DNA of 61,047 nucleotides, the filler included, from Jimgerdemannia flammicorona (lineage: Eukaryota): assembly GCA_003990765.1 (NCBI GenBank). It is 2 parts of 2 records of this genome, joined end to end, with 100 filler letters (N's around TTAATTAATTAA, not from the genome) between each part and the next. Parts side by side here need not be neighbours in the genome. Positions count along the whole stretch, not along the records: positions 1 to 30,479 come from RBNJ01000442.1; 1 more part is not named here. The stretch is one strand, 5' to 3'. The stretch's first letter is position 1. The number at the start of each line of letters is the position of its first letter. The position numbers and the translations under genes were made by a program. Positions 2,860 through 37,274 of this stretch are shown piece by piece. The notes below the pieces were generated by a model. It saw nothing but the letters and a program-made list of their open reading frames with translations, did not search any database and was not told the DNA's origin.

Positions 2860-3250
2860 TGCTGTCTGATAAGACAACTCTGAATATATGTATCTATAAG
2901 AGAAAATCAAAGAAATCTCTATTGAAATTCTTATCAATAGTAGTATAATAAGTACTATCTTAATAAAGAGGCTGTCAATAAGTTCAGACTCAAGATGTAA
3001 AGAAACTCAGAAGGAAATATTACTATATTTAGAAATAGAATAACTTAGAAACTCTCTAAAATCTATAAAAATATACTTCTATAACTAGGAGACTATACTA
3101 TAAAGCAGATATTCTATATCATATATCTTCTAAGACATAATCTTATTCTTAGAAAATTCTGACTCACTTAAGAAAAGCTATATATTAACTAATAAACCAA
3201 CATAATCTCTCTAGAATACATAAAGTTATAGCTAGAACAGATTATAAAAA
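2860..3250 (+). pseudogene. Retropepsin protease remnant, family A
   Basis: EILINSS at ~2924 (decayed EILIDSG); position between dUTPase and RT. Confidence 0.55.
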
Positions 3251-3341
3251 AAGCAAAACTTAAGTACAATATCATCTCTACTATTTAAATAAAGAAGTTA
3301 ATCTGAAAATCAGAGCAGCATATCTATATATATATTATTAA

Positions 3342-6300
3342 TAGGGATCCCAGATAGCCGGCCATGGTCAGGCCATAGCTAAGCCACAGTCAGCTATGGC
3401 TGGCCACTGGCTGGCTATATAGCTGAGCTTAATTTTCAAGTTATAGTAGAGCTTTACAAATCTATAAAATAGGCATTTCATATAAACATCAATAAATTTA
3501 CAAATATATTTCCAAATCTATTTATCATTTTTGTGCTAAATTCCCATACTAAAGGTGAATTCAATAAGCTATAGTACATCCAATTTAGATGCATATTCAT
3601 AGAGTTATTAATATTTTTATAAATACTACTCAAATAGTTAGCTGAAAATTTAAGGCCAAGCCAGGGTGGCTCGGCCTTAAATTTATGGATTGGCTAGCTG
3701 GTTAGGCTAAATTTGTAAATTTAAGGCTGAGCTATCCTAGCCAGCTGGCCAGCCATCTGGGATTACTTTAGAAATTATACAGAGATTTTAAATGTCAACT
3801 GTATAATGAAAACACATAATATTTCAATTATCTTTATTGTTCTGAATTCATCTGATAATTGTGAATCTGAAATACTTAAATATGTTGAATTTTGCTGTAT
3901 TTTCATTAAGCTATTGAATGGTAAAGGGGCAAATTCTACTCTATCTGAGGCACACAGTTCTAGGCTCATGAGTAGTCTTTTTGATTAATTTGGCTTTATG
4001 AAAGTACTTAATTTAAGGCTGAAATTGTAACAAGTTATATTATATATATACTTAGGGATCCCAGATAGCTGGCCAGGTAGCCGAGCTTAATTTTCAGATT
4101 ATAGTAGAGCTCTGCAAATCTGCGAAATAGGCATTTCACATAAACATTAATATATTTGTAAATATATTTCCAAATCTATTTATCTTTATTGTGCTAGATT
4201 TCCATACTAAAGCTGAATCCAATAAGCTATAATATATCTAATTCGGATATATATTTATAGAGTTATTAATATTTTTGTAGTTGAGTCTATTGATGGGTTT
4301 AATTATAAGATTCATAATTGTCACTTGACCAGTTGGTTGAAAATTTAAGACCAAGCCAAGGTGGCTCAGCCTTAAATTTATAGATTGGCTAGCTGGCTAG
4401 GCTAAATTTAAGGCCAAGCCACTTGGTTAGTTGGCTATAAATTTAAGGCCAAGCCACTTGGCCAGTTGGCTATAAATTTAAGGCTGAGCCACTTGGCCAG
4501 TTAGCTGTAAATTTAAGGACAAGCTACTCTAGCCAGCTGGCCAGCCATCTGGGATCAATTTAGAAATTATGCAGGGACTTTAAATATCAACTGGGTAATA
4601 AAAATACATAATATTTCAATTATCTTTGTTGTACTGGATTTGCCTGACAATTGTAAATATAAAATGCAAAAATATATCAAATTTGGCTGTGTTTTTATCA
4701 AGCTATTGAATTGTAAAGGGGTATATAATTTCTACTCTATCTGATGTGCATTATTTTGGCCTCTTACCCAGCCTCAATTTAAGGCCACTAATCACTCAAC
4801 TGGCCAAGTAGCTCAGCCTTAAATTTAAGGCCAAGTCACTTGGTCAGTTGGCTGTAAATTTAAGGCTGAGCCACCCTAGCCAGCTGGCCAGCCATCTGAG
4901 ATCAATTTAGAAATTATACAGGGACTTTAAATGTCAATTGCATAAAAAAAATACATAATATTTCAATTATCTTTGTTATGCTGGATTCACCTGACAATTG
5001 TAAATATAAAATGCTAAAATATGTCAAATTTTGCTGTGTTTTCATCAAGCTATTGAATTATAAAGAGACATATAATTTCTATTCTATCTGAGCCAAGCTA
5101 TGAACACTACCAAAATATATAGGGAAGATGCCAGCAGTGCACAGTACTTATACTCAACCTTTTGATTATAACTTTATATTATACTTAATATAAAAAAAAA
5201 AAATCATAACTTGATATAAAATATCATTGAGTTTAATCAAATAGTGAGTTTTTTTTTATTATTGTTTATAATATCAATTATCGCAATAATATTTGGCTTT
5301 AAAATTAAGCCAAGCCACTCAAGTTCTATGCCCCACTGATCTCCTCCGTGAGGCAGAACTGTTGATAGAGGCAGAACTGTCGATGGAGACAGAACTGTCA
5401 ATAGAGGCAGAACTGTTGATGGAGGCAGAACCATTGATGGAGGCAGAATCATCGATGATGGGAGTCAATGGAGGCAGAACTATTGATGGAAGCAAAAATC
5501 GTCAATGATGGAGTCAATGGAGGCAGAACCATTGATGATGGAGGCAGAACAGTTGATGGAGGCTATGGGGGTAGAACAGTTGATGGAGGCTATGGGGGCA
5601 GAACTGTCAATGGAGTCGATGGAGGCAGACCCGTCAACAATGGAGTCGATGGAGGCAGAACCATTGATGGAGGCAGAACTATTGATGGAGGCAGAACTGT
5701 TAATGGAGGTAGAACTGCCAATGAAGGCAGAACCGTCGACAATAGATGATGAAGTCAATGGAGGCAGAACTGTTGACAATGGACAATAGAGTCAATGGAG
5801 GCAGAACTGTTGACGATGAAGGCAGAACAGTCGATGGAGGCTATGGGGGCAGAACAGTCAATGGAGACTATGGGGGGCAGAACAGTTGATGGAGGCAGAA
5901 CCATTGATGGAGGCAGAACCATCGATAGAGGCAGAACTATTGATAATAGACAATGAAGTGGATGGAGGCAGAACTGTCGATGATGGACGATGGAGTCAAT
6001 GGAGGCAGAACCATTGATGATGGAGGCAGAACAGTCAATGGAGGCTATGGGGGCAGAACAGTTGATGGAGGCTATGGGGGCAGAACTGTCGATGAAGTCA
6101 ATGGAGGCAGACCTGTCGATGATGGAGTCGATGGAAGCAGACCTGTCGACGATGGAGTCGATGGAGGCAGAACTGTCAATGGAGGCAGAACTGTCAATGG
6201 AGGCAGAACTGTCAATGGAGGCAGAACCATCGATGGAGGCAGAACTGTCAATGGAGGCAGAACTATTGATGATAGACAATGAAGTCGATGGAGGCAGAAC

Positions 6301-8640
6301 TGTTGACAATGGACGATGGAGTCAATGGAGGCAGAACCATTGACAATGGAGACAGAACAGTCAATGGAGGCTATGGGGGCAGAACAGTCGATGGAGGCTA
6401 TGGGGGCAGAACTGTCAATAGAGTTGATGGAGGCAGACCTGTCGATGATGGAGTCGATGGAGGCAGACCCATTAATGATGGAGTCGATGGAGGCAGAACC
6501 ATCGATGGAGGCAGAACTATTGACGATGGATGATGGAGTCAATGGAGGCAGAACTGTTGATAATGGAGGCAGAACAGTTGATGGAGGCTATGGGAGCAGA
6601 ATAGTCAATGGAGGCTATGGGGGCAGAACAGTCGATGGAGGCTATGAGGGCAGAACCATCGATGGAGTCGATGGAGGTAGACTCATTGACAATGGAGTAG
6701 ATGGAGGCAGAACTATCAATGGAGGCAGAACTGTCAATAGAGGCAGACCTGTCGATGATGGAGTCGATGGAGGCAAAACCATCAATAGAGACAGAACTGT
6801 CAATGGAGGCAGAACCATCAATGGAGGCAGAACTATCAATGGAGGCAGAACCATCAATGGAGGCAGAGCCATTGATGGAGGCAGAACTGTCGATAGAGGC
6901 AGAACCATTGATGGAGGCAGAACTATTAATGATGGACAATAGAGTCAATGGAAGCAGAACTGCTAACAATGGAGGCAGAACAGTCAATGGAGGCAGAGCT
7001 ATCGATGGAGGCAGAACTGCCGATGGAGGCAGAACCATCAATGGAGGCAGAACTGTCAATAGACAGAACTATTGATGATGGAGGCAGAACCATTGATGAT
7101 GGAGTTGATGGAGGCAGAACCATCAATGAAGTCAATGGAGGCAGAACCATCAATAAAGTTGATGGAGGCAGAACTATTGATGGAGGCAGAACTGTCGATG
7201 GAGTCAATGGAGGCAGAACTGTTGACAATAGAGGCAGAACAGTCGATGGAGGCTATGAGAGCAGAACTGTCGATAGAGTCGAACTATCAATGGAGGCAGA
7301 ACCATTGATGGAGGCAGAACCGTCGATGATGGATGATGGAGTCAATGGAGGTAGAACAGTCAATGGAGGCAGAACCATCGATGGAGGCAGAACCATCGAT
7401 GATGGAAGCAGAACTGTTGATGATGGAGTCGATGGAGGCAGAACCGTCGATGGAAGCAGAGCTGTCAATAGAGGCAGAACCATTGATGGAGGTAGAACCA
7501 TCAATGGAGATAGAACTATCAATTGACAGAACCATCAATGATGAAGGCAGAACCATCAATGATGGAAGCAGAACTGTCGATGATGGAGTTGATGGAGGCA
7601 GAACCATTGATGGAGGCAGAACTATTGACGATAGACGATAGAGTCAATGAAGGCAGAACTGTTGACGATGGAGGCAGAATAGTTGATGGAGGCAGAACAG
7701 TTGATGGAGGCTATGGGGGCAGAACTGTTGATAGAGTTGATGGAGACAGAACCATCAATGGAGGCAGAACCATCGATAGAGGCAGAACTATCGATGGAGT
7801 CAATGGAGGCAGAACTATTGATAATGGAGGCAGAACAGTTGATGGAGGCTATAGGGGCAGAACTGTCAATGGAGTTGAACCATTAATAGAGGTAGAACTG
7901 TTGATGGAGGCAGAACCGTCGATGATGGAGTCAATGGAGGCAGAACCGCTGACAATGGAGGCAGAACAGTCAATGGAGGCAGAACCATTGATGGAGGCAG
8001 AGCTGTCGATGGAGGCAGAACTGTCGATGGAGGTAGAACCATCAATGGAGACAGAACTGTCAATGGACAGAACCATCGATGATGGAGGCAGAACCCTTGA
8101 CGATGGAGTTGATGGAGGCAGAACTGTCAATAGAGGCAGAACTATCAATAATGGATGATAGAGTCAATGGAGGCCAAACCATTGATGATGGATGCAGAAC
8201 AGTCGATAGAGGCTATGGGGGCAGAACTGTCGATAGAGTTGATGGAGGCAGAACCATCAATGGAGGCAGAACCATTGATGGAGTCAATGGAGGTGGAACT
8301 GTTAATGATGGAGGCAGAATAGTCAATGAAGGCAGAACCGTCGACAATGGATGATAGAGTCAATGGAAGCAGAACCGCTGATGATGGAGGCAGAACAGTT
8401 GATGGAGGCTATGGGGGCAGAACTGTCAATGGAGTCAATGGAGGCAGAACTGTCGATGGAGGCAGAACCATCGATAGAGGCAGAGCCATTGATGGAGGCA
8501 GAACCATCGATAGAGGCAGAGCCATTGATGGAGGCAGAACCATCGACGATGGACGATGGAGTCAATAGAGGCAGAACCATTGATAATAGATATATAAACA
8601 AATCACCATAAGGCACCTTTTGAAAAATTTCGCCCCATAT
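3342..8640 (+). repeat. Left long inverted arm (~5.3 kb)
   Basis: Mirrors 15875-20888 block by block from the TIR to ...CACCATAAGGCACCTTTTGAAAAATTTCGCC. Confidence 0.92.
5349..8590 (+). repeat. Minisatellite array, 18-bp core GATGGAGGCAGAACYRTY with 9-bp and 27-bp variants
   Basis: Directly visible tandem array; source of the MEAEL/DGGRTV ORF calls. Confidence 0.95.
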
Positions 8641-8849
8641 ACCAATGCCTTACCCATGTAGGTCTCACGTTGTCAGGCCTCACATTGTCAGGCCTCCCAG
8701 GCCCCTCGAATTGCAAACCTTTGACATCCTACCCACTATTCATAGTTGTTTGACTGGTACACCTCAAGGCATATATCTCAACTTAAAATCCCATTTAGTT
8801 AATAGTTACAAAAAATCAGTTGCTAATGTATAACTACAAAAAATGTTAC

Positions 8850-8856
<7 letters not shown>

Positions 8857-8921
<65 letters not shown>
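8857..8921 (+). repeat. Poly(A) tract (~65 nt)
   Basis: Homopolymer run. Confidence 0.9.
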
Positions 8922-8923
<2 letters not shown>

Positions 8924-9127
8924 TTACAGGACAATCTCCTCTCCCTTGTTAAATTGATCCTCTATCTCATATATCTCCTCACCAAGTTGCTCCTTCTCCT
9001 CCTTGCCAAGCTGCTCCTTCTTCTCCTCATCAAACCAATCTTCTTCCTTCTTACCAATTCTCAGAGATGATGTAGGAGGTGTTAGATTAATGACAAATTT
9101 GTCTTTTCTTTTGGTATTTAAAACTCT

Positions 9128-9730
9128 TTAAACTTGACTAGCATTAAGACTAGTGATTTTCTGATGCCCACAAATTCTCAAAATATCATAGACTGAATGA
9201 GCCTTGCTTATCTTCTTTTGTATAGTATGGTGGGAGATTCCTGATGATGAGATCAGCACTTCCTCACATTTGTTGTTAGTTGAAATCTGGTTGCTATCTC
9301 CTCCTAAATCCTCCCTTTTAAGCCGACAACCAAAATCATACAATACTTCAAGTAAACATTTTCCACACTTCCTCTTATAAGTATTAAAAAGATCAATATA
9401 ATTATCCTCTGGTGTCTTCTCCTGAGATATTGAGGATTTGTTTACTTTAGCAGCCTGATGTAGGAAATCACCCAAAGACTCCAGTTCTGCTTTCAGTACC
9501 TCTTGTTTGGCTTTCAGTGCCTCTTGTCTGGCTTCAGAATCCTTAGAAAGACAGATGATATTTTTTTGTTTCTTGCTACAGATAGTAACTAGTTCTTGAA
9601 CTTCTGTAGAAGAAATAAGAAATTCTATCTTTAGAGGGAAGTTACTAGCATATTCTTGAATAGTGAGAAAAGCATCTATTACTTTCTTTGAGAGAGATAT
9701 ATTGGAGGATACCACATATGTTGACATCAC
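9128..9730 (-). CDS. Cargo ORF of the hAT, unknown protein (200 aa; probably extended ancestrally to 8924 with an acidic tail)
   Basis: Non-repetitive 200-codon ORF; reading past the TAA gives ...KKEEDWFDEEKKEQ... then, after a frameshift, ...GEEIYEIEDQFNKGEEIVL*; motif similarity to Ty3 ORF3s. Confidence 0.65.
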   Translation of the reverse strand: MMSTYVVSSNISLSKKVIDAFLTIQEYASNFPLKIEFLISSTEVQELVTICSKKQKNIICLSKDSEARQEALKAKQEVLKAELESLGDFLHQAAKVNKSSISQEKTPEDNYIDLFNTYKRKCGKCLLEVLYDFGCRLKREDLGGDSNQISTNNKCEEVLISSSGISHHTIQKKISKAHSVYDILRICGHQKITSLNASQV

Positions 9731-9924
9731 ATGATATCTGGTCTGCTCATAAACCTTAATTTCTCATTTTCAAAAAATTCCCACTTATTTTTCCCAGTTA
9801 CCTTTCTGAGCTAGATTACTTTGTCACATGGATGATGTCAGGTGAATGTTGGAATATTCCAGACAGTATGACATCATCTATACAACTGTAATAGTAGAAA
9901 TCACTAATGAATCATTAGTGATTG

Positions 9925-11620
9925 TGCACCTCAGATAGAGTAGAAATTATATGCTCCTTTACAATTCAATAGCTCAATAAAAACATAACTAAATTTAATA
10001 TATTTTAGCATTTCAAATTCACAATTGTTAGGTGAATCTGGCACAATAAAGATAATTAAAATATTATGTATTTTCATTGCACAGTTGTCATTTAAAGTCT
10101 CTGTATAATTTCTAAATTGATCCTAGATGGCTGGCCAGCTGGCTAGAGTAGCTTGGCCTTAAATTTACAGCCAACTGGCCAAGTGGCTTGGCCTTAAATT
10201 TACAGCCAACTGGCCAAGTGGTTTGGCCTTAAATTTACAGCCAACTGGCTAAGTGGCTCGGCCTTAAATTTACAGCCAACTGGCCAAGTGATTTGGCCTT
10301 AAATTTACAGCCAACTGGCCAAGTGGCTCAGCCTTAAATTTACAGCCAACTGGCCTAGTGACTGAGCCATCCTGGCTTGGCTTTAAATTTTCAGCCAACT
10401 AAAATATTTTTAGTAATTGTGTGCCTCAGATAGAGTAGAAATTATATGCCCCTTTACAATTTAATAGCTTGATGAAAATACAGCCAAATTTGATATATTT
10501 AAGCATTTCAGATTCACAATTGTCAGATGAATCCAGCACAATAAAGATATTTGAAATATTATATGTTTTTATTGTACAGTTGACATTTAAAGTCTCTGCA
10601 TAATTTCTAAATTAATCCTAGATGGCTGGCCAGCTGGCTAAGGTGGCTCAGCCTTAAATTTACAGCTAACTAGCTAAGTCATTTGGCCTTAAATTTACAG
10701 CCAAGTGGCTTGGCCTTAAATTTACAACCAACTGGCCAAGTTGCTTGGTCTTAAATTTAGCCTGACCAGCTAGTCAATTTATAAATTTAAGGCTGAGCCA
10801 CCCTGGCTTGGTCTTAAATTTTCAGCCAACTGGTTAAGTAATATTTATGAATCTTTTATATATAGTACACTGTACTTATATTCAACTTTTTGCTACTCCT
10901 TTTTAATATATTTAATAAATAAAATAAAAACCATAAATTGATATAAAATAATAAAAATAGTTTCACAATTTTGGCCTTAAATTAAGCACTTTTACAAACA
11001 AAAAGGCTACTCATGAGCATAGGAGTTACTTTTATAAAGCCAATGAATTATTAGTAATTGTATATCTCAGATAAAGTAGAAATTATATACCCCTTTATAA
11101 TTTAATAGCTCAATGAAAACATAATCAAATTCAATATATTTTAGTATTTTGGATTTACAATTCTCAGGTGAATCTGGCACAATAATAATAATTGAAATAT
11201 TATATATTTTCATTGTGCAGTTGATATTTAAAGTCTCTGTATAATTTCTAAATTGATCCCAGATGGCCAGCTGGCTAGGGTAGCTTAGCCTTAAATTTAC
11301 AGCCAACTGGTCAAGTAGCTTGGCCTTAAATTTACAGCCAACTGGTCAAGTGACTCAGCCTTAAATTTAGCCTGACCAGCTAGCTAATTTTCAATCAGTA
11401 TTTACGAACCTTTTAGAAATCAAAACAGCCAAATAAGGTCTGGCCACTTGGCCAACTAGCCAATCCATAAATTTAAGGCTGAGTCTTAAATTAGTAACTA
11501 CTTCACTTTATAGAAGTATTTCTTCACAGCTATAGTGGCTAGGCCTTATAATTATTTAATTGAAAATTCTTTTATAACTAAGTGGCTGGGCTTCACAGCC
11601 ATAGTAGCTAAGCCTTAAAT
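9925..11620 (+). repeat. Three tandem internal copies of the hAT end module with 35-bp repeats (GGCCTTAAATTTACAGCCAACTGGCCAAGTGGCTT)
   Basis: Same module as in the arms, with TIR-like GATCCYAGATGGC at ~10119, ~10615, ~11255; putative transposase-binding subterminal repeats (inference). Confidence 0.85.
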
Positions 11621-12022
11621 TAGTATACTCTATCATTATTTGTATATATATATATATATACTAACAAAAAATTCACTATAAATACTCTGCTCTCTAAAGT
11701 AAAATAAATCTTAGTTCCTAACCACAATTCTCAATAATCTTACAAATACACTTCAACTGAGCTGATCTGCTTAATATAACACTCTCACAAGTCACCCACC
11801 TACAAGAAGCTACTTTTCACTCAAAATCTGCTTCTACAATTATAAGATAATCAACCCATTGATTTATCTCATAGTGCTTCTAAACAATTTACAGTTCAAA
11901 TAAAAGCAATAAGTAATATAAGACCACCGAACTTAGCAGTTCACTGGCAGTTCAATAAGACTTTAATAGAACTTAATAACTTTAGAAATATCTTTTAATA
12001 AATCAATTGCTTGATCTCAAAA

Positions 12023-13869
12023 ATGGAGTCTAATATTGAAGAAACTATTTCTGCTTTAGCTATATTTAGTCAAAAAGATACTTCAAGCTCTTTTGCTTTA
12101 GTTTCTTCTAAACAAAAGTCAAAGTTTTGGGATTATTTTACCCTTAACAATGACAAAAAATATAGCTGTAATTACTGTTCTACAGTATTCAGCTCTGGTT
12201 CAAATCTTAGTACACTGAAGCACCATCTTACTTATAAACATTCTGATAAGATAGAGGCAGTATCTTCTGCTAATAGCTCTGTAGTATTACAATCATTTGA
12301 TGCTCAAGATACTACCAAGAAATTCATCAAATGGATTGTTTGTGATTTGCAACCCTTTACAACAGCTGAGAGACCTGAGTTTCTTGACTTTGTAAAGAGT
12401 TTTAACCAGCCATATGCACTGCCCTCTGCAGATCATACCAAAACTCTTATTATGTATCAATTTGTGACAAATAAAATAGCTATTAGTGAAATACTTCAGA
12501 ATATTTCTGGATTATTATCTTTAACAGCTGATATTTGATCATCTTGTATACAAGACAGTTATCTTGGTATAACAGTATATTTTATTGATGCTAATTGGAA
12601 AATGCAACATCTTACTTTAGATATTTTACCATTTGGCAATTCTCATTCTGGTGATGCAATTAAAGAAGCCATAGAGAGTATTTTGGATGATTTTGGAATT
12701 ACAACAAAGCTTCTTGCTTTGGTTACAGATAATGCAACCAATATGACAAAGCTTTTGGACTTTTAAAGAATGAAATAGAGAGAAAGTATAAGCACCAGAT
12801 ATATCATATTAGATGTTCTGGTCATATACTTCATTTAGTTGTTCAAGAAGGCTATAAGATTAATAGCAATTTTCCTGATCAACCTCTCAATAAACTTCAC
12901 CAATGTATTTTTACAATACATAGAAGTCCAAAGCTTATACAAGAACTTCAGAAGCTTTGTGAATATTTAGAAGAAAAGTTTTATAAACTAGCTATTGATA
13001 TAATCACATGCTGGACTTCTATCTATCATATGGTAGATATTGCACTTGGGCAGTGCAAAGCTCTTGATATGCTTATTGCTAATGCTGAGCATGGATCTAT
13101 TTTGAAAGAGAATTCTTTAACAGATAAAGATTGGGAAGAGATCAGTAGAGATTACAATCAATTGAAGATGTTTTTTAAAGCTTCTGAAATTCTGATTGCT
13201 GAAAATTATCCTACTCTCAATCTTGTACATAGTATATATGTATGTCTTATCAATAAGTTAAATACTCAATCAACAGATCAGAGTAAAAATATGGCTGAGA
13301 AACTTCACAATTACTGGATGAAACTTCCTATTGAATCCAGTTTAGCTACTATTCTTGATCCTCATATAAAGATTAATTCTAATCTTTATTAGAAAAATAT
13401 CAGAAAAACTGATATTGTTAAGAATCAGAAAGCATATTTCAATCTTCTTAAAAAACATGCAAAAATCTACACTGAGTCTATTCCTAGACAAGTTGAAATA
13501 CTACTTTCTAAGAAGACTACATTTGAAGAATTCTTAGATCTAACAGAAGAAGATCTCAAGTCTACTTCTGAATTAGTTGATGCTATCAATATAGATCAAG
13601 AGATAAAACTCTACTTTGATATACCAATTGCTGATCAAAGAGTAAAGCCATTAGACTGGTGGAAAAGTCATGAAAAAGAGTTTCCAACTCTAGCAGCTAT
13701 GGCAAGAGATTGGTTAGCAATTACAGCATTAAGTGTTCCTTATGAATCACTTTTTTCAATTGCAGGAAATACTATTACTGCAAATCGAAATAGACTATAT
13801 CCAGAAACTGCAAGAGCACTTTTATGTTTAAAATTATAGTGGAACTTTGATAAAAATTTGAATAATTAA
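12023..13869 (+). pseudogene. hAT transposase (BED zinc finger, DDE core, hAT dimerisation domain), disrupted
   Basis: FWDYF..CNYC..LKHHLTYKH; SLTADI*SS; VTDNATNM; IRCSGHILHLVVQ; YPTL; PLDWWK..EFPTLAAMARDWLAI..SVPYESLFSIAG..RNRL; stops and a frameshift. Confidence 0.95.
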
Positions 13870-13890
13870 ATAAATTGGCTTTTGTACTTA

Positions 13891-15302
13891 TATATATACT
13901 TTAGTATTTTTTATTTTATAATAAATATCAAAGAATAATTATAGCTTTAGTCACTTAGTTATAACAGTGACCAGATACTTGTTTTAACTTAACTACTCCA
14001 AATAGGCTTGGACTGCTTTTCAGGTGGTTTGGATAGCTTGATTTGGTGGCAAACCAAATCCGAATTTCTCTATACTGACTGATTTCCTTGTTATAGAAAG
14101 AGGCAGTGTGAAATTTCCAAGAAATAGAGCTATCCTCTAGAAAATTATCCTGATCTCTGTTTTTTAAAATATCTCTTGGTTGTGGAGATATTTGAACTTG
14201 AAGTTTTGATCTGAGTTTTGGGAGAACTTGAATAATTTATCAATAGATTGAGGAATGGTCTTCAGCTTTGGATAGATTGTAGCTGAGGTCTCTGGAGATT
14301 TTTGGGATGTATTTGCTCTCGGGGATTCTCGGTGGTTCTCCAGATATAGGCTAGTTTCTCACAGTATCATATTTTGAGGTATCTCCTTGACGTTTTGGTA
14401 TATATCTCCACAGTAAGGAGTCATAATCTCATTAATCTTGGTGAGAATGTTTTCAAGGGTCTTGGCAAGCTCTGTTCAAAAGGGGAGATCTATAGGATTC
14501 GAACTGAGCTCGAACAATTCGATCAAAGTGTGGGAACCGGTCTTTGGTTTTGACTTATTTTACTGAGATACCGAATTTGGGTCAATTGGGACTCTCAGTA
14601 AAATCAAGTCAAAACCAAAGACCAGTTCTCACACTTTGCTCAAATCATTCGAGCTCAGTTCGAATCCCATGGATCTCCCCTTTTAGACAGAGCTTGCCAA
14701 GAACCTTGAAAACATTCTCACTGAGAATAATAAGATTACAACCCCTCACTGTGGAGATATACACCAAAATTTCAAGAAGATATCTCAAAATATGATACCA
14801 TGAGAAACTAGCCCATATCTGGAGAACCACCAAGGATCCCCGAGAGCAAACACAACCCAAAAATCTCCAGAGACCTCAGCTACAATCTATCCAAAGCTGA
14901 AGACTATTCCTCAATCCATTGACAAGTTATTCAAGTTCTTCCAAAACTCAGATCAAACTTCAAGTCCAAATATCTCCACAACCAAGAGATATTTTAAGAA
15001 ACAGAGATCAGGATAATTTTCTAGTAATTTGAGGCAATCTCTATGCCAAGTTTCAAAAGGATAGCTCTATTTCTTAGAAATTTCATACTGCCTCTTTCTA
15101 TAATAAGGAAATCAGTCAGTATAGAGAAATCTGGATTTGGTTTGCCACCAAATCAAGCTGTCCAAGCCACCCGAAAAGCAGCCAAGCCTATCTGGAGTGG
15201 TTAAGTTAAAACAAGTATCTGGTTACTTTTATAACTAAGTGACTAAAGTTATAATTATCCTTTGATATTTATTATAAAATAAAAAATACTAAAATATATA
15301 TA
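13891..15302. repeat. Long hairpin/foldback insert (~680-710-bp arms, 24-bp loop 14569-14592)
   Basis: 13891-14568 is the reverse complement of 14593-15302 except a ~33-bp indel near 15025-15057; TA-rich ends; MITE-like. Confidence 0.9.
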
Positions 15303-15874
15303 ATTAATTTTATTATTATTTATATAGAATTACATTTACCTATAGTTTCTTTTTTAAATCTAATTATTGTATCAAAAAGTTTTTGTTTTTTTTTTGATAT
15401 CTTATAACTTTTTAGATGATGTTTTTGTTTAGCTAATTTTGTCATTTTTATACTAAAAATAATGTAAAGTTTAAGTGAGGCATTAGAAGGTGAGGTGTAC
15501 TAAAATGGGTGTCAGAAAAGAGCATCAGTGTGAGCTGAAATGAGTGACAAGCGATAAGGCTTTGGAATGAGTGACGAGTGATAAGGCTTTGGAATGAGCG
15601 ATGAGGCTTTGAAATGAGTGATGAGCCACAAGGCAAGGCTCCCCTTCCCTCTCCAGCAAAAGAAATTCTGAACCTAGAGCAAGGAAGCTGTCATATGTGG
15701 GGCATTGGAAGGCAAGGTGTACTAAAATGGGTGTTGGAAAATAGCATTGATATGAGCTGAAATGAGGGATGAGTGATGAGGCTTTGGAATGAGCAATAAG
15801 TGACGAGAGGAAAATGAGTAGTGGAAAAAGAGCATCAGAGTAATTAGTAAACTCTGGAAGTCACATATATATAT

Positions 15875-18800
15875 ATATGTGGCGAAATTTTTCAAAAGGT
15901 ACCTTATGGTGATTTATTTATGTATTCATCATTGATGGTTCTGCCTCCATCGATGGTTCTGCCTCCATTGACTTCATTGATGGTTCTGCCTCCATCAACT
16001 CCATCATCAATGGTTCTACCTCCATCGTTAATGGTTCTGTCCATTGACAGTTCTGCCTCCATCAATGGTTCTGCCTCCATTGATGGTTTTGCCTCCATCG
16101 ATGGCCCTGCCTCCATCGACAGTTCTGCCTTCATCAACGGTTCTGCCTCCATCGACTCCATCGACAGTTCTGCCCCCATAGCCTCCATCAACTGTTCTGC
16201 CTCCATCATCAGCGGTTCTGCTTCCATTGACTCCATCATCCATCATTGATGATTCTGCCTCCATCAACAGTTCTGCCTCCATTGATGGTTTGACTCCATT
16301 GACAGTTCTGCCCCCATAGCCTCCATCGACTATTCTGCCTCTATCGTCAATAGTTCTGCCTCCATTAACTCCATTGACAGTTCTGCCTCCATTGATGGTT
16401 CTGCCTTCATTGACTCTATTGACAGTTCTGCCCTCATAGCCTCCATTGACTGTTCTGCCTCTATCATCAATGGTTCAGCATTTGTTGACTCTATCATCCA
16501 TCGTTGACGGTTCTGCCTCCATCAACGGTTCTGCCTCCATTAACTCCATCGTCAAGAGTTCTGCCTCTATCATCGATGGTTCTGTCCATTGACAGTTCTG
16601 TCTCTATTGATGGTTCTACCTCCATCGATGGTTCTGCCTCCATCAATGGTTCTGCCTCCATCGACTGTTCTGCCTCCATTGCCAGCAGTTCTGCCTCTAT
16701 TGACTCCATTGTCAACAGTTCTGCCTCCATCAATGATCCATTGATGGTTCGACTCCATTGACAGTTCTGCCTCCATAGCCTCCATCAACTGTTCTGCCTC
16801 CATCATCAACAGTTCTGCCTCCATTGACTCCATCGACAGTTCTGCCTCCATCAATGGTTCTGCCTCTATTGATGGTTCAGCCTCCATCAACTCCATCGAC
16901 AGTTCTGCCCCCATAGCCTCCATCAACTGTTCTGCCCCCATAGCCTCCATCAACTGTTCTGCCCCCATAGCCTCCATCAACTGTTCTGTCTCCATCGACT
17001 GTTCTGCCCCCATAGCCTCCATCAACTGTTCTGTCTCCATCGACTGTTCTGCCTCCATCATCAACAGTTCTGCCTCCATTGACTCTATCATCTATCGTCG
17101 ATAGTTCTGCCTCCATTGACAGTTCTACCTCCATCGACTCCATTGTTAACAGTTCTGCCTCCATCATTAATGGTTCTGTCCATTGACAGTTCTGTCTCCA
17201 TCAATGGTTCTACCTCCATCGATGGTTCTGCCTCTATCGATGGCTCTGCCTCCATTGACGGTTCTGCCTCCATCGACTGTTCTGCCTCCATTGTCAGTAG
17301 TTCTGCCTCCATTGATTCCATTGTCCATCATCGACAGTTCTGCCTCCATCGATGGTTCTGCCTCTATTGATGGTTCTGCCTCCATTGACTCCATCGACAG
17401 TTCTGCCCCCATAGTCTCCATCAACTGTTCTGCCTCCATCATCAACAGTTCTGCCTCCATAGACTCCATCATCTATCATCGACGGTTCTGCCTCCATCGA
17501 TGGTTCTGCCTCCATCAACAGTTCTGCCTCCATCGACACCTCCATCAACAGTTCTGCCTCCATCGACGGTTCTGCCTCCATCAACTTCATCGATGGTTCT
17601 GCCTCCATCATTGGTTCTGCCTCCATCGATGGTTCTGCCTCCATCGATGGTTCTGCCTCCATCGATGGTTCTGCCTCCATTGATGGTTCTGCCTCCATCG
17701 ACAGTTCTGCCTCCATTAACTTCATCAATGGTTCTGCCTCCATTGACTTTATCAACAGTTCTGCCTCCATCAACTCCATCATCGATAGTTCTGCCTCCAT
17801 CATCGACAGTTCTATCCATTGACAGTTCTGCCTCCATTGACGGTTCTGCCTCCATTGATGGTTCTGCCTCCATTGACAGTTCTGCCTCCATCAACTTCAT
17901 TGATGGTTCTGCCTCCATCAACTCCATTGTTGATGGTTCTGCCTCCATCATCGATGGTTCTGTCCATTGACAGTTCTGCCTCCATCGATGGTTCTGCCTC
18001 CATCAACTTCATCGACAGTTCTGCCTCCATCAATGGTTCTGCCTTCATCAACTTCATCGACAGTTCTGCCTCCATTGACTTCATTGACAGTTCTGCCTCC
18101 ATCAACTCCATCATCAATGGTTCTGCCTCTATTGTCAACAGTTCTGTCCATTGACAGTTCTGCCTCCATCAACAGTTCTGCCTCCATTGGCAGTTCTGCC
18201 TCCATCGACAGCTCTGCCTCCATCGACAGTTCTGCCTCCATCGATAGTTCTGCCTCCATCGACTCTATCAACAGTTCTGCCCCCATAGTCTCCATCAACT
18301 GTGCTGCCTCTATCGTCAGCAGTTCTGCTTCCATTGACTTCATTGTCCATCATTGACGATTCTGCCTCTATCAATGGTTCTGCCTCCATCTACTCCATCG
18401 TCCCTCCATCAACTCTATCGACAGTTCTGCCCCCATAGCCTCCATCAACTGTTCTGCCCCCATAGCCTCCATTGACTGTTCTGCTTCCATAGCCTCTATT
18501 GACTGTTCTGTCTCCATCATCAATAGTTCTGCCTCTATTGACTCCATTGTCCATCATTGACAGTTCTGCCTCCATTGATGGTTCTGCCTCCATCAACTCC
18601 ATCGTCAACAGGTCTGCCTCTATCGACTCCATCGACAGTTCTGCCTCCATAGCCTCCATTGACTGTTCTGCCCCCAAAGCCTCCATTGACTGTTCTGCCT
18701 CCATCGTCAATGGTTCTGCCTCTATTGACTCCATTGTCCATCATTGACAGTTCTGCCTCCATCGATGCTTCTGCCTCCATTGATGGTTCTGCCTCCATCA

Positions 18801-20888
18801 ACGGTTCTGCCTCCATTGATGGTTCTGCCTCCATCGACTGTTCTGCCCCCATAGCCTCCATTGACTGTTCTGCCCCCATAGTCTCCATCAACTGTTCTGT
18901 CTTCATTATCAATGGTTCTGCCTCCATTGACTCCATCATCCATCATCGACAGTTCTGCCTCCATTGACTTCATTGTTGATGGCTCTGCCTCCAATGAGGG
19001 TTCTGCCTCTATCAATAGTTCTGCCTCCATCGACAGTTCTGCCTCCATCGACTCCATCGTCAACAATTTTGCCTCCATCAACAGTTCTGTCTCCATCAAC
19101 TCCATCATCGATGATTCTGCCTACATCAATAGTTCTGCCTCCATCAATGGTTCTGCCTCCATCGATGGTTCTGTCTCTATCAACAGTTCTGCCTCTATCA
19201 ATGGTTCTGTCTCGCAGAGAAGGTCAGCAAGAGTATGGAACTTGAGTGACTTGGCTTAATTTTAAAGCTAAATATTATTGTGATAATTGATATTATAAAC
19301 AATAATAAAAAAAACTCTCTATTTGATTAAACTCAATGATATTTTATATCAAGTTATGATTTTTTTTTTTTTATATTAAGTACAATATAAAGTTATAATC
19401 AAAAGGTTGTATAAGTACTATGCACTATATAAGCTGGCATCTTCTCTATATATTTTGATAGTATTTATAGCTTAGCTCAGATAGTTATAATTGTCAGGTA
19501 AATTTAGCACAATAAAGATAATTGAAATATTATGTATTTTTTTATTTAAAGTTCCTGCATAATTTCTAAATTGATCCCAGATGGCTGGCCAGCTGGCTAG
19601 AGTGGCTCGGTCTTAAATTTACAGCTAACTGACTAAGTGGACTCAGCCTTAAATTTACAGCCAACTGGCCAAGTGGCTCGGTCTTAAATTTATAGCTAAC
19701 TGACCAAGTGGCTCAGCCTTAAATTTAGCCTGGCCAGCTAGCCAATCTATAAATTTAAGGCCGAGCCACTCTAGCTTGGCCTTAAATTTTCAGTCAACTG
19801 GTCAAGTGACAATTATGAACCTTATAATTAAACTCATCAATAGACTCAACTGTTAATAACTCTATGAATATGCATCCGAATTAGATGTACTATAGCTTAT
19901 TGGATTCAACTTTAGTATGAGAATCTAGCACAACAAAGATAAATATATTTGGAAATATATTCACAAATATATTAATGTTTATGTGAAATGCCTATTTCAC
20001 AGATTTGCAGAGCTCTACTATAATCTGAAAATTAAGCTCGATCACCTGGCCAGCCATCTAGGATCCCTAGATATATATATATATTATAACTTGTTACAAT
20101 TTCAGCCTTAAATTAAGTACTTTCACAAAGCCAAATTAATCAAAAAGGCTACTCATGAGCCTAGGATTGTGTGCCTCAGATAGAGTAAAAATTATATGCC
20201 CCTTTACAATTTAATAGCTCAATGAAAACATAGCAAAATTTAACATATTTAAGCATTTCAGATTCACAATGTCAGGTGAATCCAGAGCAACAAAGATAAT
20301 TGAAATATTATGTATTTTCATTATGCAGTTGACATTTAAAGTCTCTGTATAATTTCTAAAGTAAGCCCAGATGGCTGGCCAGCTGGCTAGGGTGGCTTAG
20401 CCTTCAATTGCCAAGTAGTTTAGTCTTAAATTTACAGCCAACTAGCCAAGTGGTTCGGTCTTAAATTTACAGCCAATTGGCCAAGTGACTTGGCTTTAAA
20501 TTTACAAATTTAGCCTAACCAACTAGTCAATTCATAAATTTAAGGCCGAGCCACCCTGGCTTGGCCTTAAATTTTCAGCTAACTGATTGAGTGGTATTTA
20601 TAAAAATATTAATAACTCTATGAATATGCATCTGAATTGAATGTACTATAGCTTGTTGGATTTGCCTTTAGTATAAAAATCTAGTACAACAAAGATAAAT
20701 AGATTTGGAAATATATTTGCAAATTTATTGATATTTATGTAAAATGTCTATTTTACAGGTTTGCAAAGCTCTACTATAACCTGAAAATTAAGCTCAGCCA
20801 TCTGGCCAGCCAGTGGCCAGCCATGGTCAGCCATGGCTCTAGCTAGCCACAGCTGGTCAGAGTGGCTTAGTCATAGCTGAGATCCCTA
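15875..20888 (-). repeat. Right long inverted arm (~5.0 kb)
   Basis: Reverse complement of 3342-8640, starting GGCGAAATTTTTCAAAAGGTACCTTATGGTG. Confidence 0.92.
15925..19213 (-). repeat. Minisatellite array, inverted counterpart of 5349-8590
   Basis: Units ...GTTCTGCCTCCATC; same unique flanks mirrored. Confidence 0.95.
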
Positions 20889-20896
20889 ATTATTAA

Positions 20897-22484
20897 AGAG
20901 CTATCAGTAGAAGATAATAATGATGACTTTCTGAAATATTGAAGAATAAATATAATAAAGAAAAAAGCCTCTAGAAACTACTCAAAGACTATGAAGATGT
21001 CTTTCAAGAACTTTAAGAACTACTATCTACTCAAGTAGTAGAATATAGCATTAAAACTACTCTAAGAGTAGATCCTATCTACTATAAAATCTATTGACTA
21101 GCTTAGTATGAGCTGGAAAATCTCAAGAAATAGCTAGCAGATCTATCAAATAAAGGCCTCATGTGTCTATCAAAATTACTATATAGTATACTAATTCTTT
21201 TATCTATAAGAAAGATAGAAGCCTCTATATATATTAATTACTAAGTACTTAATTAGATATCTGTTAAGAACTGATATATACTCTCATAAATTAATAAACT
21301 ACTTAATGAAGTATATGTATAATGTCAAGATCTTTTCATTTATTGATCTTATATTTAGATATTATGAATTCTGTGTAATACTTTTCAGACTCACTAATAT
21401 ACCAATAATCTTCTAGATACTGATGAATTATATATTTTGAAAATATCTTTGAGTATTTATACTAATATATTTAGATGATATCCTAATATATAGCACAAGT
21501 AGTACTGTTTACCAATAATATCTACAGATAGTTTTTGATATACTCCAAGAATATAAGCTCTCAGAAAAAAAAAAAAAAGTACTATTTTTTCAAGAAGGAA
21601 ATCAAATATCTGTAATATATTATCTTAGTAAATAGTATTACTGTCAACTCCAAAAAGACTGAAGCAATCTATAACTAGCCCATTCTGAAGACTCTTAAGT
21701 CTTTACAAGGATTCAATAAATTAGCTAGATACTACTAAAGATTTATTTAAGAATTCTCAATAATTGTCTCTTTACTTATAAGTCTTTGCAAGTAGAGAAC
21801 TAATATCAAAAAAGAATAGACAGAAAAATACACCACAGCAATAAATATCCTCAAGAGAATTCTGACTAATGTGCCAATCCTGATCAGCTCAGACTCTATA
21901 GGACTCTTCATTATTACTACAGATATTTCAAATATTATAATTAGAGCTGTATTGAGTCAGTATAAATACCCAGTCATATACCTGTCCCAGAAGCTGAATG
22001 AGCATAAAAAGAACTATACAATACAAGATAAGAAACTTCTTACTATTATCTAATCTCTGCAATCATAAAGATATTTCCTTCTCAGTAAGAAATTTACCTT
22101 ATAGACAGACTATTAAGATTCAGATATAATTAATTTTTATGAAGAGACAAGCACAATGAATGTAGATCCTTATATCCTTTAATATTGAAATCAAGTACAT
22201 TACTGATATCAAAAATAAAGTAGCTAATATACTTTCCTGAAGTATTCTGAAGAATAATTTTGTAGTAATTAATATCACTATTAGTCTATATATTTAAAGA
22301 AGTCAAAAAGAAGTATCCAAGGATACTAATGTATAAAAAATTTAAGCAATATAATGAAGAAAGTAAACAAGAATATTTCTATTCAAAATAGATATATATA
22401 TCTTAACAATATAAAGATTTAAGTTTCTGATACTCTTATCTATCTATAAATCTTATAAGAATTATATAATATATTTATAGCTAG
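20897..22484 (+). pseudogene. Family A pol: RT, RNase H and start of integrase, degenerate
   Basis: YLDDILIYS ~21468-21495; FIITTDISN..AVLSQ..PVIYLSQKL..NYTIQDKKLL (RNase H). Confidence 0.85.
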
Positions 22485-30479: not shown

Positions 30480-30579
30480 NNNNNNNNNNNNNNNNNNNNN
30501 NNNNNNNNNNNNNNNNNNNNNNNTTAATTAATTAANNNNNNNNNNNNNNNNNNNNNNNNNNNNNNNNNNNNNNNNNNNN
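30480..30579. other. Artificial contig/scaffold linker (44 N + TTAATTAATTAA + 44 N)
   Basis: Symmetric 100-nt spacer with a six-frame stop 12-mer. Confidence 0.9.
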
Positions 30580-33500
30580 CATAGATCTTTACTACCAAGC
30601 TGCGCCATTGTCCCCCCTGAGGACCCCAACCCACCCACCATCCAGTCAGCAGATCCCCCAACAGCCCCTCCCATCTTAACACCTTCTCCTGTAGCCCCAA
30701 CCACCACTCCTCCTCAGTTACAAAAAGCCAATGTCCTGCCAGGCCCACCCATACTGCTAATACCCACCCTACAGTGAGCCACCGATTGCCAACACCACCT
30801 ACAAGCCTAGATTCTAAATCTTCCCAGCGACCTCTCTCCCCATCTGGCCTCCTTTCAACCCCCAGCCGGTCCCCAATAGCTATCCAAAAGTCCCCCAACA
30901 CCTCACATTCCCCCAGCCAATGTTCCAGCATTTGTACAAATCCCCCAGCCTGCCCAATATCATAGCACTCCTCACAATCCAGCTGACCACCATCCACCAG
31001 ATGCCCAGAATGGAAGTTCAACATAACATTCCTCTGCAACATCCACCACCACACAACCCAAAATTTGGGAGGAAGCCATCACCGTACCTCGGTACTCCAA
31101 GACCAGATCCCTGCCCAATCCCACTCCTCACCAATCCTCACCACCTGCCAACTGCTCGGCCAAAGATCCTGGCCCATTCGCCGCTGACACTCCACTCTAT
31201 CTCCAATGTCAAACTCAGTGAGTGGAACTCCCCCTAGAAGCAGACAGTCCCATCTCCACATAGCCGGACCCCATGCCACCTCTCCCATCCGGTGCGCTCC
31301 ATCGACCACTCCTCACCAAAAGCCCCTATACTGTAACTGTCGGCTTCCGTTCAGACCTACCAAAGAGAGTAGATCAACGGAGGACCCCTGGGGGGAGACT
31401 CTCCTCTCCCACACCTTCTTCATCAATGGTACCCAACCCCACCCTGTAGCTTGACAGCCCTTCTCAACCACCAAGCTCGCAAGCAGTGTAGGCGCTTAGG
31501 GAAATCAACAAGGCCCAGGCCTCCCCTAAGCACTGGCTCGACAAGGGTATCCCAACTGATCTGGGCCCTTCTACCCACCCAAATCCAATCCCTAGCCAGT
31601 TTCTTCAACTGCTTCACTACCCAAGCAGGAAGGTTCAAGTGATACACCACATACCACAGCTTGGGGAACCAATATACATTCAGAATCGCTACCCACCCAG
31701 CCAGGGAGATGTGATGACCCCCCCAACTTTTCAGAGCCTCCCCCCAAATATCCACCCTCCTCTCCCACCATGCCCATGGCAGGACAGAACCATATACAGA
31801 GAGGAAGATACCGAGATACCGCACCACCTCTCCCTTGGGGACAATTGTTCCAATGACATCCCCTCCCACCAGTCCATTCTCCAGCACCATCGTCTCACAC
31901 TTATGCCAGTTGAGCTTTGCCCCAGAGTGTGTCTCATACCACTCCACTGTTTCCTGTAGAGCCTCGTCATCCACTACTGATCCAAGTCCAACAACCATGT
32001 CATCCGCAAAGGCCCCCACCTTCCACTCCACATTATACACCAAGAGTCCAGCCACCCTCCTACGGATCCTATCCATCAAAGGTTCCAAAGAGAGTGCATA
32101 AAGAATAGGAGACAGCGGGTCCCCTTGAGGGACTCCTCTCCCCAAGGGAAATGCCAAACCCCTGTGGCCATTACACATCAGTGCCACTCGACTCCCTTCC
32201 AACAAACTCAACATAGAGGCCCGAAACTGTGGCGGAACCCCAATTCTGTCCAGCACCTTGCCCAGCCAAACCTGCCGAACCCGGTCATAGGCCTTCTCCT
32301 GGTCCAGAAAAACCAGTCTACCATCCAATCCACAGGCCTGGGCTCCCTCAATAATGCCATGTACCCAGGCGGTACCATCTCTGATAAGTCTACCTCCTAC
32401 AAAGCCCTGCTGCTCCTCACCTAACACCTGTTGAGCAACCTTCTGTAGCCTCGCAACAATCACCTTAGTCACCAACTTCCGATCCATATCCAGAAGCATG
32501 ATTGGCCTCCAGTTTTTCCAATCCTCTCGCCTGCCCTTTTCTTTGTACAATAGGGCCACCAGCCCTAAGTCCTGCTCTCCAATCCACACGCCATTTAGAA
32601 GAACATAGTCACAGAGAGCAGCCATCTCTCCCAGCATTCCAGGGACTTTTGCCATCTTTTTCCAGAAGTCCCACGGTAACCCATCCTCCCCTGGAGCTGT
32701 CCCAAGTTTAGTCACTGCCAGAACTCCTTGGACCTCCTCCTCCTGGACTGGTAAGATCAAGTCCCCTAGACCTTCTACTAGTGGCGGCTCCCACTCCTCC
32801 AGTGTGTCCCCAATCACCTTGGCATCAGTACCCCCTTCCTCCTCACTCCACAGACCTCGCCAATTCTCCTTCAATACTCCCAGGATCTGCTGCATACCAT
32901 GTACCAACTCTCCCTCAGCATCCAAGACCCCATCCCACTGGTGTCTCACCCGCCTGGCTTTGAGGAGCCTAGACAATTACCTAGTAGGTCGCTCACCCTC
33001 CTCAAGCCCCTGCCACCTCAGCCTCGCTACCATCCCTCGCATATGAGTCTCCTCCTCCTCTCTCAACACCTGTTGCAGTTCTGCAACTTCCAATTTCGCC
33101 CTTTCCAACCTCCAGTCCTCCACCCCATCTGACATAAGCAAATCTGCCCACTCCAACTACAATCCCTTCAGCCGATTGGAAGCAAACTATGTTCTCCTCC
33201 TCCTCTGTCTACTAGCCTCTCTCCCAGCTCCACCCCAATAGACCCTTGCAGCCTCTTTCAACCTCATCCAACAGACACCCACAGACAAACCCTCCTGCCT
33301 CCAGAGCAGAACCTTTGTCTGGATGTCCTCCACCCATGAATCCTACAACTTCTTCTCATCTAGCAGGGAGGAGTTAAGACGCCAATGTCCGGGTCCGTCA
33401 CCACTCCCCCCAAACTGCCCCTGCCCAAACAGTCCCCAGTGGTCAGACCATGGGCACCACACTACCTCCAGAGACTTCCAGACATCAGCACCCCAGCATT

Positions 33501-34149: not shown

Positions 34150-36160
34150 CTACAAATCCTCATCCAAGCCCTCCTGTGCCACATCTAAGATGTGTTCCGC
34201 AGCCAGTTCCTTCTTCTCAGCTTCCTGTGCCTCCAACCCCTCCAGAAGTGCAACCATTGCCCCATCCTCTTTCTCCTCAAAATCCTCCCAATACTCCCCA
34301 CAGGCCTCCTGCCAGAACTGCAAACCATGACATTCCGCCCAACAGTAGGCCGCCCACTCACCAGCGACAACCACCAACTCTGCCTTCCTCACCTCATCTA
34401 CCTCATAACCCTCCTCTTCCAGTAGGATCGCAAGAATCTCCCCCTTCAGCGCTCCCTCCACTCCATTACCTCGCAGCAGCCGTGCCCAATGCTCCTCCAG
34501 CATGGCCCTCAGATCCACTTCCCCCAACACCTCCACTACAAGGTTGTCCATCACCTTGCTCATCCACAACAGATTCCCAATCTCCTTCCCTCCAGGGGTC
34601 CCTGGCCGCCCTGCATCCAGCATCGTAGTATCAGCACCCACACTGGCATCCTCATTCCACTCCTCCTCCGGGACATCCACCAGCTCGTCCTCACCCACCG
34701 CTATCACCTGGCCCCCTTTCGCTACATTGGGGACCCCAAAAGTAACTCATTGGGTCCCCTGCATCGGTACATCTTCTGCTTCTCCTCACTGCCCCATCGG
34801 GCCCCTCCTGATAAGAGGGGGGGGGGTGCCATCTGACTCCTCCTCCCAAACCTCGAAAGTACCATCAGCATAGGGATCCCTGCCCAGCACCTTCGCAGCC
34901 CATTCCTCTGGCACCACTGCCTCCTTTCCTCCTTTGCCAGCCCATACACTGGCTTGGACGCCTCCAGCCTCCTCAGTCCCAACTGCCTTCCTCTTCTCCT
35001 CTCCTGTCATACTTGCCAAGAGCTCCCTCTGCCTCAAGCACCCCTGGGCCCACTCCCACTGCTTCTTGTCAGTACAGATATGCTTTCCATCCACAATCTC
35101 CAGGTGCGTCAACTCCTCATAGAGCTTCCAAGCCTTCGCCTGCTGTTCCACCACACCACTCATCTCCTCCAATGCTTCCAACAGATCCTCCTCCTCCTCC
35201 TCACTCCCCTTCACCCTCGACACCTTGCAGATAAATGCTCCCCACATCAGCACTGAGGGCCAATTGCCTGCCTTCCCTGTGGCCTCCCTTCCTGCCAGCC
35301 GAATCTGGACATCAACATCACCTGTCCTAATCGTCGTCCCCTCCCACACCTGGAAGCCAACATCTACCACATCTCCATACTCCCCCATCACCTCCTCTAC
35401 CCTTCTCCTCATCTCCTCCTTCATCACTGTGGGCACCCCCTTCACCTGCAGCTGCACCACCCTGGGGTCCCACCTCAAACAGCGTACCATGGGGACCACC
35501 ACCTCCTCAACTGCCACTCCAACCCTCAGCGCCTCCTCCAGTGGGCCCACCTCCTCAAAGCCCACCTCAACTCCCTCTAGACCCTTCAGGAATTTAACCA
35601 AAGCCACCCCAGCCACCTGCTTCGAGATAAGCCCCAAAACCATCCTCGCCGTCACTGCCAAGCCCCGGAAGCACAAGGTGACCACGAACTCCAAGATCGA
35701 CTTCTTGAGTAACAGGGCCACCGCCAGCCCTGTCATACCATCCGCCAGGTCCCCCTTCCGCATTGGGAGCCCCTGCCCCCCCTGGCCATCAGCCATCACA
35801 TCTCTTTTTTTTTCCTGATTAACCGTCATGCCACCATCAGCAGTCCCGCCACTACCCCCAGCAGCCGCTCCACTCCCACCCCCTCCCCCTGGCGAAGACC
35901 CAGCTCCCACAGCAGCTCCGTCCTTCTGCTTCCCCTTCCCTCCTGCCTGACCACCTCGGGATCCTGCAGGCCAACCCCCAGACCTCAGCGTGTCCGCAAA
36001 GCTCCTCCCCTACTGCCCTCCAGCCCCCCCTCCAGATCCACTTCCACTCCCCAAGCTGTCCTGTCCACCTGAGCCCCCGAAAGACCCCATCCCCAGTCCA
36101 TACCCTCTCCCGACATGCTGCCAGTTGAAGGCCCCAGGTCCCCCTGACCTAGTACACATG
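34150..36160 (-). pseudogene. LINE ORF1 (Gly-rich N-terminus, RRM-like region, acidic C-terminus), disrupted
   Basis: ORFs 36010-36204, 34786-35910 and 34150-34707 in series upstream of ORF2. Confidence 0.75.

Positions 36161-37273: not shown

Positions 37274-37274
<1 letters not shown>

Follow-up and report, generated by a model that had tools for sequence, protein, structure and literature searches.

A decayed 17.5 kb hAT-superfamily insertion with Foldback-like inverted arms in Jimgerdemannia flammicorona

Transposons of the hAT superfamily typically measure a few kilobases and end in short terminal inverted repeats (TIRs), characters that are usual rather than defining; in canonical members the TIRs are roughly 10–30 bp and the left and right subterminal regions are unlike each other. 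A locus of the fungus Jimgerdemannia flammicorona (GenBank assembly GCA_003990765.1) raises the question of whether a hAT element can be built like a Foldback transposon, with inverted arms of several kilobases. The window, by which we mean the whole stretch of 61,047 nucleotides that was analysed, consists of two parts joined end to end, with positions 1–30,479 coming from record RBNJ01000442.1. We conclude that positions 3342–20888 represent a single genuine insertion: a hAT-superfamily element, no longer active, whose build is Foldback-like. Our preferred reading, to which we assign a probability of about 0.7, is that an Ac-like hAT element with once near-identical inverted arms of about 5 kb inserted at this site and decayed afterwards.

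The unit is 17,547 bp in length and carries TAGGGATC at both outer ends. Its left terminus, TAGGGATCCCAG (3342–3353), and its right terminus, TAGGGATCTCAG when reverse-complemented (20877–20888), agree at 11 of 12 bases; taken to 14 bases, the left TIR TAGGGATCCCAGAT (3342–3355, + strand) has 12 exact matches to the reverse complement of 20875–20888. Directly outside lie two copies of ATTATTAA, at 3334–3341 and 20889–20896, identical at all eight positions and forming the 8 bp target-site duplication (TSD) expected of the superfamily. When the end regions were scanned, the element ends proved to be the sole pair in which a 12–14-base TIR adjoins an exact 8 bp direct repeat. The terminal motif of hAT elements is YARNG and the target consensus of the Ac group is nTnnnnAn; the terminus TAGGG fits the former, and ATTATTAA, whose second base is T and seventh base A, fits the latter, as judged from one insertion only. 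An earlier note on this DNA had described termini of this type with an exact 8 bp TSD and proposed that the unit transposed in one piece. The termini and the TSD are confirmed here, and transposition in one piece is supported in that a single TSD bounds the entire 17.5 kb. Sequences resembling the terminus also occur at 34871, 38849 and 42392; they have neither common subterminal sequence nor a TSD and were dismissed as chance.

The assignment to hAT is strengthened by a transposase pseudogene at 12023–13869 (+ strand, closing with the stop codon TAA at 13867–13869), the open pieces of which span 12002–12538, 12539–12766, 12733–13392 and 13393–13839. Pfam finds an N-terminal BED finger (zf-BED, PF02892, E = 9e-10), an RNase-H-like core (hAT-like_RNase-H, PF14372, E = 1e-5, at 25.6 bits just below the 27-bit cut-off) and the dimerization domain (Dimer_Tnp_hAT, PF05699, E = 1e-20); it finds no THAP domain, as would belong to Galileo and the P superfamily. 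The domains are therefore those of the hAT transposase that had been proposed for the core, but the gene is broken four times, by TGA at 12536–12538, a frameshift within 12740–12766, TAG at 13390–13392 and TAG at 13837–13839. Relatives have W (P0003) for the TGA at 12536, Q (P0001 and P0002) for the TAG at 13390 and W (P0001) for the TAG at 13837; each of the three nonsense codons reflects a G>A or C>T change, in keeping with the mutations of the arms (described below). Since the transposase is a pseudogene, this copy is unable to move itself.

The closest protein, P0001, matches 92% of the query at 94% identity and is annotated in its source as a J. flammicorona protein, on which basis the host is taken to be a fungus of the Endogonales type. 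A more distant relative, P0003 (53–66% identical), aligns with the Hermes transposase over the motifs DxW, VTDxxxN, CSSH and TRWxSTY (E = 3e-4). The broken gene of the window retains both D motifs and the sequence YESLFS, the E of which is a candidate for the catalytic E of the hAT motif CESLFS. Among longer proteins sharing the N-terminus of the transposase there were only relatives at 46–48% identity and no intact close full-length copy.

The arms set this element apart from a typical hAT transposon. They extend over 3342–8641 (5,300 bp) and 15874–20888 (5,015 bp), together 59% of the element, and each comprises about 2 kb of subterminal modules followed by about 3.3 kb of an 18/27 bp satellite. 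The mirror arms had been proposed previously at 3342–8640 and 15875–20888; we place their inner edges at 8641 and 15874, beyond a common unique stretch of about 50 bp, and there is no terminal motif at either edge. The left subterminal arm (3342–5349, + strand) holds a terminal module, three units designated module B, 35 bp direct repeats rich in AAATTTAAGGC and, at 4053, the terminal motif for a second time; across 1,563 aligned bases it shares 90.4% identity with the right arm. Its counterpart (19214–20888, − strand), which runs out to the right terminus, has an inner copy of the terminal motif at 20058–20069; (TA)n precedes both inner copies. These inner copies (4053 and 20069) were considered and rejected as the ends of nested elements, as the sequences beside them, TATATACT and GATATATA, belong to the mirrored part of the arms and do not form a TSD.

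Mirror alignment of the subterminal arms gives three collinear blocks: 3396–3727 with 20824–20493 (90%), 3718–4660 with 20409–19481 (89%) and 5084–5329 with 19484–19235 (91%). A global alignment of 3342–5360 with the reverse complement of 19200–20888 has 1,413 matches, 150 mismatches and 582 gap columns. The gaps are mostly whole repeat units, a 347 bp unit being extra on the left and about 90 bp of 35 bp repeats extra on the right; several insertions or deletions (indels) of 35–350 bp separate the arms. The AAATTTAAGGC motif is strongly concentrated in arm-like DNA, with AAATTTA occurring 82 times in 5.4 kb against 8 times in the other 43.5 kb counted (both strands), and GCCTTAA 34 times against once in the same two portions.

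The satellite has the consensus ATGGAGGCAGAACTATCA and is arrayed in opposite orientations, forward at 5350–8590 and reverse at 15930–19213. With the unique inner edge included, the left array occupies 5350–8641 (+ strand) and contains 96 copies of the core GGCAGAAC; the right array, its mirror (15874–19213, − strand), contains 105 copies of GTTCTGCC. The remainder of the window has one copy of this core per strand. Mirror-register alignment of the two arrays shows 85.3% identity, 367 transitions and 70 transversions, whereas three circularly shifted controls gave 78.5–81.9% identity and 123–181 transversions. Since the mirror register surpasses the shifted controls, the homology of the arrays is positional and goes beyond a common repeat unit; several 300-column blocks of the mirror alignment contain just 0–2 transversions. 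Two repeat-filled mirror arms with oppositely oriented satellite cores thus bear out the Foldback-like build that had been claimed.

The manner in which the arms differ is informative about their history. Transitions make up 137 of the 150 mismatches in the non-satellite part, against 13 transversions, and are evenly divided among the four directions (33–35 each); transversion divergence there is only 0.8%. Because the mismatches are almost all transitions and are symmetrically spread, the arms must once have been nearly identical, about 99% before the transition decay. The even spectrum between the arms likewise indicates that a C-to-T process acted on both after the duplication. CpA (59) and CpC (30) are the preferred contexts of the transitions, CpT (12) being less frequent, and CpG is nearly gone (8 changes, with 14 sites remaining). 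The observed/expected ratio of CpG is 0.01–0.19 in the non-satellite parts of the window and 0.42–0.43 within the two satellite arrays. From these patterns the decay looks like repeat-induced point mutation (RIP) or methylation-driven C-to-T change in a probable Mucoromycota genome.

The surroundings of the insertion were searched with Pfam on translations in which stop codons were replaced by X. On the left lies the dUTPase domain of a decayed host retroelement (2187–2516, + strand; PF00692, E = 5e-13), together with a weak Gag-like PNMA match below the cut-off. The right flank (21315–22101, + strand) contains a reverse transcriptase (RT) domain at 21315–21590 (RVT_1, E = 3e-10) and an RT-linked RNase H domain at 21820–22101 (RT_RNaseH_2, E = 2e-18). 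The order is hence dUTPase, insertion, RT and RNase H, all on the + strand. Three decayed Ty3-like copies in the window, including this one, have dUTPase upstream of RT (2187–2516, +; 40857–41429, −; 59855–60430, −). Since domain order and strand agree and the other copies show the same order of dUTPase and then RT, the flanks fit one decayed Ty3-like pol interrupted by the insertion.

Between the arms, on the strand opposite to the transposase, is an orphan open reading frame (ORF; 8924–9763, − strand) with 211 open codons at 9128–9763, an in-frame TAA at 9128–9130 and then 67 further open codons. The 211 codons exceed the maximum of 171 seen in 1000 first-order Markov simulations of 8641–12000, and because such a length was never reached the ORF probably codes for a protein, or did so until recently. 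No Pfam family lies above the cut-off (a BAR_2 match falls far below it), and neither a word-index search among proteins of 116–370 residues nor an atlas search gave a match. HMMER against 1.84 billion representatives returned a single match, a 51-residue fragment with 64% identity (E = 5e-6), and the single-sequence AlphaFold model is poor (pLDDT 54, the predicted local distance difference test score). The earlier note had regarded this ORF as divergent cargo. An opposite-strand ORF does exist, but a passenger gene would have homologues outside the element and the sole relative here is that 51-residue fragment. We consider it most likely that the ORF is a second family-specific gene, or the remnant of one, and not captured host cargo.

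The core has further features. A block at 9923–11388 (− strand) comprises three module B units of the arm-like kind, in the orientation of the right arm, which are 82–89% identical to 3714–3962, 4385–4750 and 4820–5092. Downstream of the transposase an 888 bp palindrome (14137–15024) is formed by two arms of about 444 bp that are 90% identical (399 of 443 aligned bases); it decays in the same manner as the element's arms, with 34 of its 44 mismatches being transitions. As a nested insertion the palindrome was rejected, there being no TSD. A run of 65 A stands at 8857–8921 (+ strand), and the window has a second long poly-A run, of at least 60 A, at 37271–37334.

Related sequence exists beyond the window. 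Three sequencing runs, all from one study, contain 5–6% of the sampled core words; no RNA run was among the listed runs sharing such words. Against 2900–21300 these runs yielded 37, 88 and 100 contigs with 85–99% identity, touching 22, 28 and 27 of 30 bins, respectively. The contigs are short (150–430 bp), too short to report on architecture; they match the satellite, the subterminal modules, the ORF region and the transposase, and the differences are mainly transitions. Some of them match the orphan ORF at about 90–95%, and a further one, from run X2 (record 11), covers 9681–10079. As this contig joins the 5′ end of the ORF to the arm-like block, it suggests that the ORF belongs to the usual make-up of the family and was not captured on a single occasion. 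Run X2 also has G at 12538, where the window copy has the A of TGA. Such matches imply that there are related copies elsewhere, some of them possibly less decayed. A further X2 contig crosses the right edge of the palindrome (14921–15084). Among the contigs listed, none joins the flanks without the element, none links a terminus to another flank and none bridges an arm boundary. Joints in which the contigs appear to change strand or go back (3651/11570, 4300/19802 and 20164/9930) were set aside, since a mosaic of the repeated modules of the arms can account for them. The satellite and terminus patterns each gave 0 hits in a prokaryote genome collection.

These data are consistent with the following course of events. 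At the time of arm formation the element would have possessed near-identical inverted ends of about 5 kb, each made up of the terminus, about 2 kb of AAATTTAAGGC-type modules and about 3.3 kb of satellite. Hermes, Ac and Galileo suggest, by analogy, that the transposase may have bound through its BED finger to clusters of sites provided by the subterminal repeats and perhaps also by the satellite. The transposase would have recognized the two outer TAGGGATC termini and excised the whole unit, which would then have been pasted into the pol of the retroelement through an 8 bp staggered cut; the termini and the TSD are what point to these reactions. After insertion a C-to-T-biased mutation process would have degraded each arm by about 4–5%, and the same bias would account for the three transition-type nonsense codons of the transposase, to which a frameshift was added. 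The copy would now be an immobile fossil, mobile only if transposase were supplied in trans.

Several observations weigh against this reading. The first 15–80 or so bases inward of the two termini are no simple mirror images. The proposal that the flanks rejoin one Ty3 pol is supported by domain order and strand, but alignments fail to cross the junction: in a tblastn search with four further retroelement copies no high-scoring segment pair spanned the rejoined point, the nearest beginning 91 nucleotides to its right, and the only blastn match, at 74%, lay 1.6 kb away. The arm-like block at 9923–11388 and the palindrome point to internal rearrangement of the core. The rest of the window contains no second copy of the element, giving poly-A matches only, and a metagenome scan with the transposase alignment produced one locus, on a 1.5 kb contig, with 38% identity. 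Copies of a Foldback-like family vary in arm length, and their centre varies or is missing; the build described here is known from this one copy, and long arms as a family trait stay provisional. Some of these points would suit a one-off aberrant product, in which a family with normally short TIRs and unlike ends had one end and the adjacent satellite-bearing DNA copied, inverted, over the other. Such a copy could come about through template switching in gap repair or through an alternative (sister-chromatid or one-ended) transposition as for Ac/Ds, the product then having transposed once or not again. Both ends of the element are indeed of the left type, down to the inner duplicate of the terminus, and resemble a copied complex end; the rearranged core units and the lack of a second armed copy in the window and the metagenome scan agree with such an origin. 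We nevertheless judge it unlikely. The clean TSD means that the armed form was mobilized at least once, and satellite, subterminal modules and transposase are all found in three other runs, a matter of co-occurrence only given the short contigs.

A composite origin, either as two inverted non-autonomous elements flanking a transposase segment (a macrotransposon) or as an autonomous hAT element inside a foldback element, would explain the large size and a core that is unlike the arms in character. Macrotransposons of the Ac/Ds kind are built from two elements, complete or fractured, each with an inner end of its own, unlike the present arms, which stop at their inner edges without a terminus and would have to be incomplete elements. 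A strict scan of the core for a nested TIR and TSD around the transposase gave no hit, as did each of 20 shuffles, and a transition-tolerant scan gave one, compared with 0–2 in shuffles. Because these scans match the shuffles, the transposase gene is not part of a nested element that inserted separately and is still recognizable, and we hold a composite to be highly improbable. Long-read assembly is known to go wrong at long inverted repeats, and a chimeric read or mis-join might in principle have produced the inverted arms, which was one refutation proposed in the earlier note; the two gaps of 44 N in the window are far from the element. A chimera would be near-identical, however, whereas the arms differ by about 10%, nearly all of it transitions, and by the indels already described, and the exact TSD and matching retroelement flanks favour a biological insertion. 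An assembly artefact is in our estimation the least probable of these explanations. The insertion of a hAT element with once near-identical arms, and its subsequent decay, accounts best for the locus.

How does this element compare with known systems? With the canonical hAT elements (Ac, hobo, Hermes and Restless) it shares the 8 bp TSD, the TAGGG-type terminus and the combination of BED finger, RNase-H-like core and hAT dimerization domain; it is unlike them in that its inverted identity spans 5 kb, including 3.3 kb of satellite. The BED domain of Hermes binds short subterminal repeats (bioRxiv 10.1101/2022.09.16.508221). In Ac/Ds, distant hAT termini can move large segments and inverted duplications are tied to hAT ends (PMC1592236).

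Very long TIRs with internal tandem repeats are shared with Drosophila Foldback (FB), Tetris and Galileo, the hosts of which are flies and not fungi. Tetris is a Foldback element whose TIRs contain 220 bp repeats that also seed satellite arrays (PMC4079207); it is described there as non-autonomous with its transposase unknown, whereas the present element encodes a hAT transposase. Galileo has long repetitive TIRs with multiple transposase-binding sites, and belongs to the P superfamily with a THAP transposase (PMC3688188), in contrast to the hAT transposase and 8 bp TSD found here. A fungal parallel is ToxhAT of the Pleosporales, a 14.3 kb hAT-associated transposon with 74 bp TIRs and a cargo of ToxA, a major facilitator superfamily (MFS) gene and a patatin gene, which decayed through transition mutations in some hosts (PMC6737239). 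Both are large, fungal and hAT-associated, with extra gene content and transition decay, but ToxhAT has short TIRs and recognizable cargo where the present element has TIRs of about 5 kb and one orphan ORF.

A literature search, the scope of which did not extend to Repbase or subscription journals, found no hAT element with kilobase-scale TIRs, and one on Jimgerdemannia and the Endogonaceae found no paper on their transposons. The earlier claim of an undescribed giant Foldback-hAT element with cargo thus holds, provisionally, for the 17.5 kb Foldback-like hAT element and is not supported for the cargo. Long, internally repetitive TIRs have so far been tied to the P superfamily, through Galileo, and to the Foldback elements of flies. 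If our reading is correct, a hAT element with 5 kb arms would mean that this build has an independent origin in fungi and within a third superfamily of transposases. The function of such arms could then be compared with the biochemistry of Hermes and Ac, as regards binding-site arrays, synapsis, hairpin-prone DNA and the birth of satellites. The near-pure transition decay of the arms provides an internal clock, and hints at repeat-directed or methylation-driven C-to-T change in an early-diverging fungal lineage. The evidence is one dead copy, and its value hinges on whether the build represents the architecture of a family.

As a tentative extension, which we think possible but rather doubtful, a hAT lineage of the Endogonales may have converged on the Foldback build. 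Kilobase-scale homogenized arms would then be normal in that lineage, with the AAATTTAAGGC repeats and the 18 bp satellite acting as arrays for the BED finger, the arms seeding genomic satellite in the manner of Tetris, and a second lineage-specific protein encoded beside the transposase.

Elsewhere in the window, scans for tRNA genes and Rfam families found nothing. The two 44-N gaps lie at 30480–30523 and 30536–30579. An ORF of 407 codons at 34786–36009 (− strand), in a region with several open frames, has no Pfam family. An intact-looking ORF of 517 codons at 31423–32976 (− strand) contains a full RVT_1 domain (E = 1e-28) and may belong to a younger retroelement.

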